Below the pieces are notes generated by a model that did not search any database, was not told the DNA's origin, and saw only the letters and a list, made by a program, of their open reading frames with translations. Shown here piece by piece: positions 26,381 through 31,452 of a DNA stretch of 64,000 bases. Each line of letters begins with the position of its first letter. Within the stretch, counting starts at the first letter, position 1. Source of the stretch: Bacteroidia bacterium. Its GTDB lineage: Bacteria > Bacteroidota > Bacteroidia > B-17B0 > Aurantibacillaceae. The position numbers and the translations under genes are program-made. The stretch is from positions 4,903 to 68,902 of the forward strand of contig JBGATG010000007.1 of the NCBI GenBank assembly GCA_044229315.1, written 5' to 3'.

Positions 26381-27598
26381 TTAGTCCCGATGATTTATAA
26401 CGATCTTTTTGTTCATAATACAATTCTTAGTGAAAATACTAAGTGTGTAAACACCAGAAGGGAAATCAGAAACAGTTATCTGTTTGCTGTTACTCTCTGA
26501 AACTACTTTTCCGAGCGGGCAGCGCATGATTGCTTTGATCAATTCATCTTCAGTTTCGATGTTTAGCTCATTGGAAGCGGGATTCGGATAAATTTTTATT
26601 TCTATTTCGGTAACCGAATTTTCTTTTACTCCAATAAAGGCGTCATTTTTCCAGGTTTCTTTGGTGCGTGCCGGGGAAGAGTCGACTCCTGTTGTGATGT
26701 AAAAAATATTATTTAAGGAAAATGCCATTTCTCCCTTACGACCCAAAGCCGGAATTCCGGGATAAACCGTTACGGTTCCGGTAACTGGATCGAATAGTCT
26801 CACATCATTTGTTATTTGAGTGGTGGAGTCTTGTCCCCCATAAAAAAATGCCTTACCACTTGTAACTCCGCAACCAACATAATTGCGCGCAGGTAAACTC
26901 ACATTTGGAATTTGTGTCCATTGATCATTCAATTGGTCATATTGATAAATATAGCGGTTGAAGTTATTGCCGTTAGTTAATCCATAAGCAATATAACCAA
27001 CTCCATTGATCACAAATGCCGAGCCGCGGAACATTCCCGCAAAGGGTAAGTTGTTTTTTTGTGTCCAGGTTGAGCTTGTGATATCATATTCCCACACATC
27101 ACTAAAAACTGTTCCTCCAACGCCAACCGATCTTCCGCTAATAATGTACGCTTTGTTTCCCAAAACAAAATTACACGGACCTTGTCGAGGATTTCCCGGA
27201 AAATTCGCGAGTGCGCTCCATGTGTTTGTGGCACTGTTGTACATATACATGTCGTTCAAACAAACATTGACGCAATTGATACCGCACAACACATAGCCGG
27301 TGTTTGAATAGGAGAACGCAGTAGCATATTGTCGTTCAGTTCCGGCAGGCATGCCGGCCATATTTCCCCAAATGTTGGTCACGCCATCATAAACGTAGCC
27401 GTCTAGCGCGCAGCCGCTGGTACTTAGTCCGCTAAAGCAATAGGCGCTATTTCCAATTGCGAATACACTCCCGTCATCGCGGGCAGTTCCGGGGAAATTA
27501 GCGACCTGAATCCAGGATTGAGCCTTTAGAACATAGGAGAAAATAAATAAACTATAAAGTAAATGTTTGATGAATGCAGAACGTACAAATGCCCCCAT
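26381..27598 (-). CDS. Kelch-repeat protein with T9SS sorting domain
   Basis: Repeated FPG.AR...F......Y..GG units; IYPNP...GVYTLSI...KKIVI. Confidence 0.85.
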   Translation of the reverse strand: MGAFVRSAFIKHLLYSLFIFSYVLKAQSWIQVANFPGTARDDGSVFAIGNSAYCFSGLSTSGCALDGYVYDGVTNIWGNMAGMPAGTERQYATAFSYSNTGYVLCGINCVNVCLNDMYMYNSATNTWSALANFPGNPRQGPCNFVLGNKAYIISGRSVGVGGTVFSDVWEYDITSSTWTQKNNLPFAGMFRGSAFVINGVGYIAYGLTNGNNFNRYIYQYDQLNDQWTQIPNVSLPARNYVGCGVTSGKAFFYGGQDSTTQITNDVRLFDPVTGTVTVYPGIPALGRKGEMAFSLNNIFYITTGVDSSPARTKETWKNDAFIGVKENSVTEIEIKIYPNPASNELNIETEDELIKAIMRCPLGKVVSESNSKQITVSDFPSGVYTLSIFTKNCIMNKKIVINHRD

Positions 27599-28518
27599 TA
27601 TTGCACTTCTTTTTTCAATCTTTTTATGAGATCATCCGTTTCCTCTATTTTTATCCACTCTATCTCCACGCCGTGTTTTTCCATTCGCCTGAACCAGGTC
27701 ATTTGACGCTTAGCAAACTGATGGATAGCGGTGCTTAATAGGGTGTAAAGTTCTTTTTTAGTGATCTGTTTTAAAAGATAAAATGAAATGAACTTATATT
27801 CGAGCCCTAAGAACTGCAAGCGCTCATGGGTGATCCCTTTTTTTAATAAGCCTTCCACTTCTTCAATTAAACCATGTTCCAAACGGTATTTTAAACGCGC
27901 GTCAATTTTTTTATTTCGCTCTTCCTTATCAATTTTAATTCCAATATATTTTGGGCGGTAACTTAATTCCCGCTTTTCCGGCGGAGGATTATCTTTTAAA
28001 TAATCTAATATTTCTAGTCCTCGTATAATTCTCTTTTTTGATGTAGGATCAATGAGTTTTACGTTTGGTCCTTTGATGTTGTAGATCAATTTTACCAATT
28101 CGGTATGCGATGCCTTTTGTAGTTTGTCCCGCAAGGCATGGTTTTCCGGAACCAAGGTCATGCTGTGATCCTTTTCCAAAGCTTCCAAATACAATCCAGT
28201 TCCCCCACAAATAATTGGTAAGTGACCGCGACCAGTGATCTCATCAAAGCTTTGTTTTAGCAAACGGATAAAATCGTGTAAATAAAATTGCTCATCGGGT
28301 TCGTTCACGTCGATCAAATGATAGTTGATCTTCTTGTTCTTTACCTTGTATTCATCCAGATCTTTTCCCGCGCCAATATTCAATCCTTTATAAACTTGTC
28401 GTGAATCAGCACTTATGATCTCTCCTTTTAAAGAATAGGCCAGTTGGCAAGCTAAATGCGTCTTACCGCTAGCGGTTGGACCAAGTACTACCAAACAATT
28501 ATGACTCGGTTTTATCAA
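27598..28518 (-). CDS. miaA: tRNA dimethylallyltransferase
   Basis: LGPTASGKT, ISADSRQVY, GGTGLY, FAKRQMTWFR. Confidence 0.93.
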   Translation of the reverse strand: MIKPSHNCLVVLGPTASGKTHLACQLAYSLKGEIISADSRQVYKGLNIGAGKDLDEYKVKNKKINYHLIDVNEPDEQFYLHDFIRLLKQSFDEITGRGHLPIICGGTGLYLEALEKDHSMTLVPENHALRDKLQKASHTELVKLIYNIKGPNVKLIDPTSKKRIIRGLEILDYLKDNPPPEKRELSYRPKYIGIKIDKEERNKKIDARLKYRLEHGLIEEVEGLLKKGITHERLQFLGLEYKFISFYLLKQITKKELYTLLSTAIHQFAKRQMTWFRRMEKHGVEIEWIKIEETDDLIKRLKKEVQ

Positions 28519-29306
28519 ATGCTGTAAACGAGTTTAATATTCCCTCCGTTCTGCGTCAAATAAAATTTTCTAGGATCGTAAGTTTCGCCTTTAAAATAAC
28601 TACGCTCAAAGGTTTTTTTGTCTACTAAGAATTCTTGCTTTTTGGTTTCACCGATTGATTTAAACCCACATTTTAAATAACCCGTGCCGTAGCTCCATTG
28701 CTTGTCAACGTAGGTCATTACATCACCAGGCTCTTTTTCCGAAATGAAATGTTTTAATAATTTGGAAAGGCCCCCGGTAACGGTTGTTCCTTCCTTGCAG
28801 CAGAAACGAACTAATTCAAACGAACGCTTGTGGGCAGGTAAACGGTCCATTTTTCTACCTTTTGAAAAAGCAGCTACCGCAATGAGTTCTTCATTTATAA
28901 AAAGTCCGTAATGAAACGCGGCTGTTGCGTATTCCATTAAATGATGAGCATCTAAAAAAAGTTTCGCGTAAGGTGCGTTGATCTTCTTCACCTCACATTT
29001 TCTGGCGAACACCTTACAGTTAAGTTGTAATTTCGAACGAATAATAGAGAACATCTGATGTTCTCTTCTTACTATTTGATCCAGGGCAACGCTGATGCTA
29101 ATGTCTGATAATTTATCGTCGGCCTCAATGCAGGATGTTGAATTGTATAATTCAAAGGTATTCTCTTTAAAAATGCCGATCTTCAAATGTTCTTTTGCAG
29201 TGCTAATATCCAGGATGTGCTTCTTATAAGACAGTTTTAATTCGTTATTAAAATGTCGTTGTAAGTTTTCTGTAAAGCGTGCAATTATTTTTTCGGGGGA
29301 ATTCAA
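28515..29306 (-). CDS. Uncharacterised protein with Mom-like/GNAT-like C-terminal domain
   Basis: FARKC...FLDAHHL...YGLF...ELVRFC...[13 protein letters not shown]...TYVD...GYLKCGF pattern; ATGA overlaps with obgE and miaA. Confidence 0.6.
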
Positions 29307-30319
29307 AAATCATAATGGTTTAATTTTTCCCACAATAGATCTTTTAATTGCATGATATTCTTATTAGCCACCGCCGAGATAAAAATGAAAGGAACTTTAT
29401 TTTTCCCTTTTAACCCCTTTGTTACTTCTTTTGTAAGTTCTGCTTCCAATTCCTCATCTAACATATCAGATTTAGTAATAGCTAAAACACGTTCCTTTTT
29501 TAGAAGTTCGGGATTGTAGGATTTAACTTCGTTAACCAAAATATTGTATTCTTCAATAATGTCTTTACTATCGCAGCTTACCATGAATAACAGAAGCGAG
29601 TTGCGCTCAATATGACGTAGGAAACGTAAGCCCAAACCTTTTCCTTCGCTTGCGCCTTCGATAATTCCGGGGATATCGGCCATCACAAAACTTTTGTAAT
29701 TGCGGTATTCTACAATTCCCAAATTCGGAACCAAAGTTGTAAAAGGATAATTGGCGATCTCCGGTTTTGCGGCGCTAACTACAGAAAGCAAAGTAGATTT
29801 TCCAGCGTTTGGAAAACCAACTAAACCAACATCAGCTAACACTTTTAATTCAAGGATCTTCCATTCGCTTTTTCCATCCTCGCCAGGTTGTGCATGACGC
29901 GGCGTTTGCATGGTGGATGATTTGAAATGTGTATTTCCCAAGCCACCACGACCACCGGCCACAATAATATGTTCTTCTCCGTCTTCTTTTATTTCAAAAA
30001 GTACTTCGCCGGTTTCCGCATCTTTTGCAATAGTACCAAGAGGAACTTCCAGATATTCATCTTTGCCTTGTTTTCCGCTGGAATTTGAACTTCCTCCGCT
30101 TTCACCTTCGGTGGCGATTACATGTTTACGATATTTTAAATGGATCAAGGTCCAAAGTTGTTTATTGCCACGCACAATGACGTGTCCGCCACGACCACCA
30201 TCACCACCGTCAGGCCCGCCCTTGGCCGTAAATACATCACGGTGCAAATGCCTTGAGCCGGGTCCGCCTTTTCCGCTTCTGCAGCAGATCTTTACATAAT
30301 CAACAAAGTTTGAGTCCAC
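29303..30319 (-). CDS. obgE: GTPase ObgE
   Basis: [33 protein letters not shown]. Confidence 0.97.
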
Positions 30320-30335: not shown

Positions 30336-30360
30336 AAAGCCTGCGCACAAGGCACAGGCT
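30336..30360 (-). terminator. Terminator-like hairpin after adk
   Basis: Minus strand AGCCTGTGC-CTTGT-GCGCAGGCT followed by TTTT. Confidence 0.6.
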
Positions 30361-30375
30361 TATATGATCAATAAT

Positions 30376-31452
30376 TTATTTACGTTTTTTAGAAGATTTT
30401 TTGGCTGCTTTCTTGGCAACTTTTTTCTTCACTACTTTTTTAGTTGCTTTCTTTTTAGCAACCGATTTTTTCTTGGCAACTTTTTTTACCACTTTCTTCT
30501 TAGCTGGTTTTTTTGCAACCTTCTTTTTAGTGGCAGGTTTTTTCTTAGCTACTTTTTTAGCAGGCTTCGCTTTCTTCTTTTTGGTAGCCGAGCTTGTCGA
30601 AGCTTTTGCTTTCTTCACAGCAGTATTTTTCTTAATATTCGCCGCTTTCTTTTCACCGTGAGCGTGACCATTGCTTTTGGAATGATCTTTAGTAACTGTT
30701 GCTAAAGTTGATACCGCAGTTTTTCTTTCTTCTTCCTCTTCTGCTTCTACACGTTTGATCGCGTCGATCTCCAATAACAAATGCGGTTCAATTTCATCTG
30801 CAACCTCAAAATCATTTACAGTAAGATCTAAATGCTCAAGATCTGTTTCCAATTGCGTCAAGTCAACTTCCGCTTTAATAAAAGTGATGCGATCTACTAA
30901 ACTTTGGAAGATCTGATCAATGGTTCCGATACCATGAATGGAATGGAATTTCCCTTGCTCGCTATAGTAATTTTTTAAAGGAAGCGTTTTGTTATTGTAC
31001 TCGGCAATACGATTGCGAATTATCCCTTCGTTCTTATCATCTTCACGTCCGCTGTCTTGTCCGCGAAGCAGTAAACGCTTGGTCAATTCTTCATCGTCAA
31101 CTTCCAAAGCTAACATGGCGTGAATAGCTGTGCCTTTCTTTTGTAAAAGATCATCCAATGCCACCGCTTGCGCAGCAGTGCGTGGAAAACCATCAAAAAT
31201 AAATCCTTTAACGTTTGGATTCGCATCTAATTTTGATTCGATCATTCCAATAACGATCTCATCGCTAACAAGATCTCCGCGATCCATAATGGCTTTCGCT
31301 TGCAAACCAAGCTCTGTTCCTCTTGCAATTTCAGAGCGTAGTAAGTCGCCTGTGCTCAAATGCACTAATCCGTATTTATTGATCAGGTTCTCTGATTGAG
31401 TTCCTTTTCCTGCGCCCGGAGGACCAAATAAAACTAAATTCAATGTTTCCAT
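30376..31452 (-). CDS. adk: Adenylate kinase with acidic linker and histone-H1-like Lys/Ala-rich tail
   Basis: GPPGAGKGTQ, LSTGDLLR, FDGFPRT, short-LID GREDD; about 165 extra C-terminal residues in frame. Confidence 0.93.
   Translation of the reverse strand: METLNLVLFGPPGAGKGTQSENLINKYGLVHLSTGDLLRSEIARGTELGLQAKAIMDRGDLVSDEIVIGMIESKLDANPNVKGFIFDGFPRTAAQAVALDDLLQKKGTAIHAMLALEVDDEELTKRLLLRGQDSGREDDKNEGIIRNRIAEYNNKTLPLKNYYSEQGKFHSIHGIGTIDQIFQSLVDRITFIKAEVDLTQLETDLEHLDLTVNDFEVADEIEPHLLLEIDAIKRVEAEEEEERKTAVSTLATVTKDHSKSNGHAHGEKKAANIKKNTAVKKAKASTSSATKKKKAKPAKKVAKKKPATKKKVAKKPAKKKVVKKVAKKKSVAKKKATKKVVKKKVAKKAAKKSSKKRK

Follow-up and report, generated by a model that had tools for sequence, protein, structure and literature searches.

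The 64,000-nucleotide window analysed here, a stretch of contig JBGATG010000007.1 of a Bacteroidia bacterium (GCA_044229315.1), carries a Mom-like gene, named momL, whose product ends in a GNAT-fold domain of the Mom superfamily that keeps part of the Mom catalytic set. It is a real and constrained gene of Bacteroidota. The next gene, miaA2, encodes a second, divergent paralogue of the IPPT family and is not the single orthologous miaA of the genome. Judging from their distribution, momL and miaA2 appear to be gained and lost together, with the same pattern in two families, and look like a two-gene module. The favoured reading, to which we give a little less than an even chance, is that this module modifies the N6 position of adenine in nucleic acid, probably in tRNA. 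The two genes and the domains of momL are located as follows.

28515-29306, minus strand: momL, listed as an open reading frame of 263 amino acids with a TTG start and a TGA stop
28518-29012, minus strand: C-terminal Mom-family GNAT domain of momL (about residues 99-263), recognised by PHROG, Foldseek, VIA and hhalign
29013-29306, minus strand: N-terminal domain of momL (about residues 1-98), variable, of putative restriction-endonuclease/Vsr-like fold, catalytic constellation not conserved
27598-28518, minus strand: miaA2, the divergent second IPPT paralogue, 306 amino acids, with a TTG start overlapping the momL stop

The Mom-type domain and its nuclease-like companion

The AlphaFold2 model of the momL protein has a predicted local distance difference test score (pLDDT) of 92. 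The top Foldseek match of this model is Mu Mom (8bv8, 5.6e-7), with ordinary GNATs next. In VIA-align many GNATs are tied at Z 13-14, and Mom 8bv8 (Z 13.9) has the most residues aligned (156). Moreover, residues 80-239 match several PHROGs, namely phrog_3339, labelled 'homing endonuclease' (4.8e-39), phrog_559 (1.6e-32), phrog_29804 (1e-22) and phrog_1384, labelled 'Mom-like DNA modification protein' (1.1e-7). When a profile of 252 momL family members was compared with a profile of seven phage Mom proteins, hhalign gave a probability of 94% (E 1.4e-7, 127 columns) and paired residues 101-229 with residues 27-168 of the Mom record. Larger profiles on both sides were needed for this result, as an alignment of 30 sequences against a single Mom sequence was uninformative (probability 1%). 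The Pfam family of Mom, PF25680, is matched by four of the five relatives tested, at 2e-6 to 1e-5 and with 25-28 bits against a cut-off of 27.1 bits. A sequence search of the PDB with the single momL protein returned only a glyphosate N-acetyltransferase (E 0.17), and with the family profile it returned nothing. The first-pass annotation of this DNA had assigned the protein to the Mom/GNAT family; the Foldseek, VIA, PHROG and hhalign results bear this out, and the structural comparison with Mom and GNATs that it proposed yielded a match.

Mu Mom is a glycyltransferase that uses Gly-tRNA(Gly) as donor and the adenine N6 of double-stranded DNA as acceptor, a mechanism solved only in 2026 (PMC13219725). 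The earlier description of Mom as simply a GNAT adenine modifier is out of date. In Mu Mom, R111, S124 and R151 are essential, and the set needed for momylation also includes H58 and D149 (PMC13219725). The residue numbers used in that paper are those of the GenBank record plus ten. Across the 252 family members, the equivalent positions in momL are these.

Mom H58: H122 in momL, kept in 251 of 252
Mom R111: R167, kept in 243 of 252
Mom D149: D201, kept in 245 of 252
Mom Y159: Y/F210, aromatic
Mom Y59: L123, not kept
Mom R151: Q203, occupied by Q, D or E, not kept
Mom S124: T177, ambiguous (T in 137, V in 64 and S in 23 of 252); S/T181, four residues on, is better conserved

Additionally, G178 and G179 are invariant (252 of 252) in a loop that reads T-V-T-G-G-L-S. 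This loop is an inexact fit to the pyrophosphate-binding motif of acetyl-CoA-dependent GNAT acetyltransferases, Q/R-x-x-G-x-G/A between strand 4 and helix 3, a fit that does not exclude coenzyme A binding. Taken together, momL shares with Mu Mom (PF25680; 8bv8) the GNAT fold, the equivalents of H58, R111 and D149, an aromatic residue at the place of Y159 and a basic protein (pI 9.3 for momL). The two differ in that their identity is about 15%, momL has an extra nuclease-like domain at its N-terminus, and momL is cellular and chromosomal with no Com-type regulator, whereas Mom is a phage late gene. FemX, L/F-transferase, MprF and PacB, to which no specific sequence relationship of momL could be found, are aminoacyl-tRNA-dependent transferases of GNAT fold; a mechanistic analogy to them is possible, with an aminoacyl-tRNA ester as the donor, as in Mom.

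The gene is conserved well beyond the window. It occurs in a single copy in the 4.0-Mb genome and is found in 66 of the 75 genomes of the window's genus, mostly in the same place. Among 666 candidates scored by a length-limited word search, 228 relatives have E<=1e-3, nearly all of them unnamed proteins of Bacteroidota metagenome-assembled genomes. An exhaustive search gave 16,634 representative clusters with E<=1e-3, and 743 with E<=1e-30. The nearest clusters in the ESM Atlas are listed as Bacteroidota hypothetical proteins, and a comparison of the momL protein with NCBIfam gave no meaningful match. In an alignment of 30 orthologues (43-87% identity), 38 columns are invariant, and all except one lie beyond residue 100.

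The first 95-100 residues are the variable part of the protein. Before residue 100, the only conserved columns in the 30-sequence alignment of whole proteins are D76, S91 and L93, the latter two lying near the C-terminal edge of the N-terminal domain. D76 is the sole nearly invariant position besides the start residue in an alignment of 25 N-terminal sequences, and it is D in 231 of the 252 family members. Modelled alone, the N-terminal 100 residues reach a pLDDT of 77, and a Foldseek search with this model returned nothing below 1e-3. The top-ranking structures in an exhaustive VIA search with the domain are nucleases of restriction-endonuclease fold, namely Bax1 (Z 7.9), the endonuclease-like protein 3hrl (Z 7.6), McrC (Z 6.5) and I-Bth0305I, whose catalytic domain reaches Z 6.0 with 85 of the 98 residues aligned. 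Hef has been placed in the Vsr-like family of which I-Bth0305I is the prototype (PMC3239194). On these models, a restriction-endonuclease/Vsr-type fold is probable, at modest Z values of 6-8. The domain is probably degenerate and nuclease-dead, and an active nuclease site is unlikely: D76 is the single conserved acidic residue of the domain, so that a multi-residue nuclease active site cannot be conserved. The first-pass annotation had called the N-terminal part degenerate and the enzyme domesticated. The first statement agrees with this conservation profile, and the second is fair for a single-copy gene present throughout most of its genus and devoid of a nuclease active site.

The closest sequence relatives of momL are the Hef-like homing endonucleases of phages (phrog_3339, phrog_559). 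A tblastn search against phages returned 370 records, mostly annotated 'Hef-like homing endonuclease', with 9-11 matching places in each of the Campylobacter phage genomes. For instance, residues 231-481 of Acj133p179 from Acinetobacter phage 133 (505 amino acids) align to residues 4-247 of momL; this protein has 230 additional N-terminal residues and a weak Vsr match at its residues 229-282. The relatives proposed in the first-pass annotation, phage proteins of the Mom family, are thus correct at the level of the superfamily, and the nearest ones are the Mom-type tails of Hef-like homing endonucleases and not Mom itself. Fusions of phage Mom domains to restriction-endonuclease-fold nucleases are known from jumbo phages, where a cut-and-protect idea has been put forward (PMC7824862). 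Both momL and the Hef-like proteins have a Vsr/restriction-endonuclease-like domain followed by a Mom-type GNAT domain, in an order alignable over residues 4-247. The Hef-like proteins are about 500-600 amino acids long and have an N-terminal DNA-binding head (NUMOD, zinc-ribbon or repeat modules), whereas momL, with its 263 residues, starts at the nuclease-like domain. Unlike in their Vsr/EDxHD-type domain, the nuclease catalytic set is not conserved in momL. Furthermore, the Hef-like genes are mobile and often multi-copy in phages and patchily distributed among close relatives, whereas momL is single-copy, vertically inherited in bacteria and paired with a MiaA paralogue. In effect, momL would be a cellular and single-copy relative of these Mom-tailed phage endonucleases, in a 'headless' form.

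This kinship raises the question of whether momL is a decayed selfish element, left over from a Hef-like homing endonuclease once inserted beside miaA2 and now devoid of an enzymatic role, or serving MiaA2 only in a structural or regulatory way. The homology over residues 4-247 and the loss of both the DNA-binding head and the nuclease residues would fit such an origin, and free-standing homing endonuclease genes are typically located between conserved genes (PMC2988022). However, the GNAT half is strongly constrained (38 invariant columns among 30 orthologues, with catalytic-type residues kept in 243-252 of 252), there is a single copy per genome, and the gene has been kept across two families in many unlinked arrangements. 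Decay of this kind is therefore considered highly improbable.

MiaA2 and its association with momL

MiaA2 matches the Pfam family IPPT (PF01715) at 9.9e-52, with 176.5 bits against a cut-off of 23.6 bits. The canonical miaA of the window's genome (G000:C1:1421473-1422192) lies on another contig and scores 279 bits, and its product is 28% identical to MiaA2. Along its full length, MiaA2 aligns to the solved MiaA structures 3d3q and 2qgn (5e-37), with the tRNA-clamping insertion region and the C-terminal KRQxTWF helix included, and it keeps the P-loop GPTASGKT and the motifs DSRQVY, GGTGLY and AKRQMTWF. It thus has in common with MiaA (tRNA dimethylallyltransferase) the IPPT family, the P-loop, DSxQVY, GGTGLY, KRQxTWF and the length. 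It is unlike MiaA in being confined, in the two families examined, to carriers of momL, with the exception of two genomes of the window's own genus. The housekeeping miaA was considered as a partner of momL and rejected, the neighbour being a paralogue in a genome with two IPPT genes. The first-pass annotation had placed momL between obgE and miaA; obg is indeed upstream and an IPPT gene downstream, and it is the identity of the latter that has changed. A phage origin of miaA2 beside a Mom-like gene was also rejected, as the 4 kb retrieved to each side of the gene in the best 'phage' record, MT837446, contain no momL. This record (MT837446.1, locus L160, 'Bacteriophage sp.' from human faeces, unverified, 11 kb) encodes a MiaA2-type protein that is 41.5% identical to MiaA2, closer than canonical MiaA.

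The IPT superfamily also contains adenylate isopentenyltransferases, and MiaA2 has a weak match to PF01745 and a match to 3a8t (4.8e-11). In a small-molecule pathway, MiaA2 would prenylate a free adenine nucleotide and the GNAT, together with an oxidoreductase where one is present, would tailor the nucleoside. Such an accessory oxidoreductase occurs in some modules. Aminonucleoside pathways such as that of puromycin combine an NAD-dependent dehydrogenase, a DegT-type aminotransferase, an aminoacylating step and an N6 alkylation. Against this stand the full-length alignment of MiaA2 with tRNA-type MiaA, which covers the clamp-insertion region and the KRQxTWF helix, and the lack of LOG, transporter or other secondary-metabolite genes accompanying the pair. 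Therefore, a nucleoside or nucleotide product is regarded as very improbable.

The distribution of the two genes was tabulated genome by genome.

Own genus (75 genomes and the window's): both genes 67, miaA2 only 2, momL only 0, neither 7
Second family (81 genomes sampled): both genes 34, miaA2 only 0, momL only 3, neither 44

At least one of the two matches counted as miaA2 only is truncated 54 residues into the MiaA2 sequence, as would happen at the end of a contig. Five complete genomes among the seven with neither gene carry a single IPPT gene. In the Pfam search for IPPT, two matches per genome were obtained in the window's genus and at most one in the other genera of the family. Of the family's ten other genera, one (g152) has both genes; the remaining nine have no MiaA2-type match and, apart from one weak match, no momL. 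That weak match (E 2e-24) lies at C156:3920-4414 of genome G414, in genus g151, inside an open frame of 468 amino acids; this genome has no IPPT match, and the frame may represent a different fusion form of the Mom-like domain. The second family includes Olivibacter and is thus Sphingobacteriaceae-like. Its cases of momL alone comprise one contig edge and one genus, and one of its genera is split, with both genes in one genome and neither in another. In a phylum-wide sample of 301 genomes, three genomes other than the window's have momL, each with two IPPT genes.

At 53 of 80 genome loci, miaA2 lies directly behind momL in the same orientation, most often no more than 20 nucleotides away. This adjacency is seen in nearly all loci of the own genus and in 35 of the 52 divergent metagenome loci with at least 1.2 kb of downstream sequence. 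The flanks vary between genera while the pair of momL and miaA2 persists, and four arrangements were distinguished.

Arrangement 1: adk-obg-momL-miaA2, in the window's sub-clade only
Arrangement 2: DUF7738-DegT-momL-miaA2, the commonest
Arrangement 3: TylF-unknown-GT8-momL-transketolase, or Wzx beside momL, with miaA2 elsewhere in the genome
Arrangement 4: unrelated flanks, in the second family

Two neighbours were tried as partners and rejected. The adjacency of obg and momL occurs at about 10 of the 80 genome loci, in the window's sub-clade only. The DegT aminotransferase belongs to the core of the family with or without momL (168 of 185) and is unlinked in the window's genome; since DegT is core regardless of momL, its adjacency to momL is synteny and not partnership. 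The conservation of the neighbourhood, which the first-pass annotation had suggested examining, thus extends to momL and miaA2, and the linkage to obg is restricted to one sub-clade. An NAD(P) oxidoreductase of the GFO/IDH/MocA type lies between momL and miaA2 in several genomes of the second family and at four metagenome loci, and may be a third component of the module. In Olivibacter ginsenosidimutans the oxidoreductase (L112 4845-6002) overlaps the start of miaA2. Loci L141, L142, L144-L146, L148, L207, L216 and L234 likewise have it between the two genes.

These neighbours also bring to mind a role in glycan synthesis, in which the GNAT would acylate or aminoacylate an amino sugar that enzymes encoded nearby produce, its association with MiaA2 being incidental. 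A DegT/DnrJ/EryC1 aminotransferase is upstream at most loci of the genus, other loci have a family-8 glycosyltransferase, a TylF methyltransferase, a Wzx-type flippase and a split transketolase around momL, and several Sphingobacteriaceae-like genomes have the GFO/IDH/MocA oxidoreductase within the module. Oxidoreductase, aminotransferase and N-acyltransferase form a classical amino-sugar route, for example WbpB/WbpE/WbpD. However, the DegT orthologue is present irrespective of momL, and the flanks change between genera while the pair stays. Moreover, the presence of momL tracks MiaA2 and no glycan gene, and its sequence family is that of Mom and Hef and no known family of sugar N-acetyltransferases. 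An amino-sugar acceptor is accordingly given little probability.

Candidate chemistry of the pair

Modification of tRNA adenosine is taken as the most likely job of the module because both enzyme families act on the N6 of adenine and MiaA2 keeps the architecture of a tRNA-type IPT. MiaA2 would dock on the anticodon loop and act as a prenyltransferase, and the momL product would contribute an acyl or aminoacyl group; by analogy with Mu Mom, an aminoacyl-tRNA is a plausible donor of the latter. Together, the pair may build or alter a modified adenosine in tRNA, at position 37 or a neighbouring one. Also counted for this reading are the basic momL protein, its nucleic-acid-type N-terminal domain, the lack of any defence-system match and the translational coupling of the pair to obg by 4-nucleotide overlaps in the window's genome. 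A more specific version, rated as rather unlikely, holds that the aminoacyl or acyl group from a charged tRNA and the prenyl group from MiaA2 are installed in a so far unknown hypermodified adenosine of Bacteroidota tRNA. If true, this would be the first cellular, non-phage case of Mom-type tRNA-dependent chemistry, acting on RNA instead of DNA.

Several points weigh against a module acting on tRNA adenine. The momL protein of the window itself has no Mom match at E<=1 in Pfam, no Acetyltransf match and no other family. R151, which is essential in Mu, is replaced by Gln, Asp or Glu throughout the momL family, and the equivalent of S124 is ambiguous, with T177 being Thr in just 137 of 252. The helix-turn-helix-like (HTH-like) insertion of Mu Mom, residues 175-209, is indispensable for momylation (PMC13219725) and has no counterpart in momL. 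The hhalign alignment stops at residue 168 of the Mom record, the 156 model residues aligned by VIA span 187 Mom residues, and the tail beyond the GF motif is about 25-30 residues shorter in momL than in Mom. Because R151 is replaced, the S124 equivalent is ambiguous and the insertion is absent, the acceptor of momL is probably different from that of Mom, and perhaps the donor as well. As to distribution, several other Bacteroidota families (for instance f30, f39 and f21) have two IPPT genes and lack momL. The genomes of a clade are not independent, so that the co-occurrence rests on a limited number of gains and losses, a number that the genome counts overstate. Furthermore, about one third of the momL loci have no adjoining miaA2, and at some of these momL is surrounded by glycan genes (GT8, TylF methyltransferase, Wzx flippase); the sugar-type GFO/IDH/MocA oxidoreductase is part of some modules. 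Finally, the catalytic activity, the donor, the RNA target and the cooperation on one substrate are inferred.

The acceptor might also be DNA. In that case the pair would mark adenines of the cell's own DNA with a momylation-like adduct, a prenyl-type N6 adduct or both, as an epigenetic mark or for protection, and the N-terminal domain would serve as a DNA-binding module. All characterised or predicted relatives, namely Mom and the Mom-nuclease fusions, act on DNA, the closest sequence relatives are the phage Hef-like DNA endonucleases, the N-terminal fold is restriction-endonuclease-like, and the momL protein is basic. On the other hand, the HTH-like DNA-binding insertion of Mom is absent, R151 is replaced, and the partner MiaA2 is a full-length tRNA-type IPPT. 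There is neither a restriction partner nor a defence-system signature nearby, the gene is chromosomal and single-copy and is here translationally coupled to obg, and PLSDB contains no plasmid-borne or mobile copies of momL. Modification of DNA is thus judged improbable. An anti-phage defence system was also considered and rejected, since PADLOC gave no match for momL, DegT or DUF7738 and only a P-loop-level match (0.005) for MiaA2, leaving no defence signature at the locus.

The Mom family, its GNAT assignment and the Mom-nuclease fusions are already known. The momL branch is unnamed in Pfam and NCBIfam, and full-text literature searches returned no publication in which a Mom-family protein is connected with MiaA or with an IPPT paralogue. 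Mom-type domains number more than 16,000 sequence clusters in the present search, whereas the mechanism of Mom itself was solved only recently. The locus represents a cellular branch of Mom that appears to have lost the nuclease function and lacks the DNA-binding insertion, and that is tied to a dedicated MiaA paralogue by co-occurrence and operon structure. Olivibacter ginsenosidimutans JCM 18200 is a cultured carrier of the pair. A tRNA or DNA adenine as the acceptor could reveal a new modification and a role for Mom-type domains outside phage Mu; a sugar or nucleotide acceptor would instead widen the acceptor range of the Mom branch of GNATs.

Gene boundaries and neighbouring features

The remaining features at the upstream and downstream junctions of momL are listed below.

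29303-30319, minus strand: obg (GTPase Obg/CgtA), 5' of momL, matching GTP1_OBG (1e-54) and MMR_HSR1 (9.5e-24)
29303-29306, minus strand: TTGA overlap of the obg TGA stop and the momL TTG start, read directly from the sequence
28515-28518, minus strand: TTGA overlap of the momL TGA stop and the miaA2 TTG start, read directly from the sequence

The first-pass annotation had given the extent of momL correctly; the open-reading-frame list has the same coordinates on the minus strand, and every C-terminal motif quoted there is found in the translation. It had described both junctions as ATGA overlaps, and this was wrong: on the coding strand each reads TTGA, with a TTG start over a TGA stop. The TTG start at the obg stop recurs in momL orthologues located behind obg. 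The tight junctions, together with a hairpin between adk and obg, suggest that obg, momL, miaA2 and the following gene form a tightly packed transcription unit of their own.

The hairpin (30337-30361, minus strand) is strong and terminator-like, with 10 pairs, 6 of them G-C, followed by a T-rich tail. Upstream of obg, adk (30376-31452, minus strand) encodes 358 amino acids, made up of a normal Adk and a tail of about 130 residues. This tail is very rich in Lys and Ala (KKKxAKK repeats) and similar to histone H1 or a ribosome-binding tail. Inside momL, close to where the N-terminal and GNAT domains meet, an inverted repeat at 29046-29066 has a 9-bp stem, AGAGAACAT-C/T/G-ATGTTCTCT, and was returned on both strands by the terminator scan. 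The gene 3' of miaA2 (26381-27598, minus strand, 405 amino acids) overlaps the miaA2 stop in a TAATG junction and, by eye, resembles a secreted repeat protein. It is kept downstream in the closest relatives (loci L007, L008, L040 and L041).

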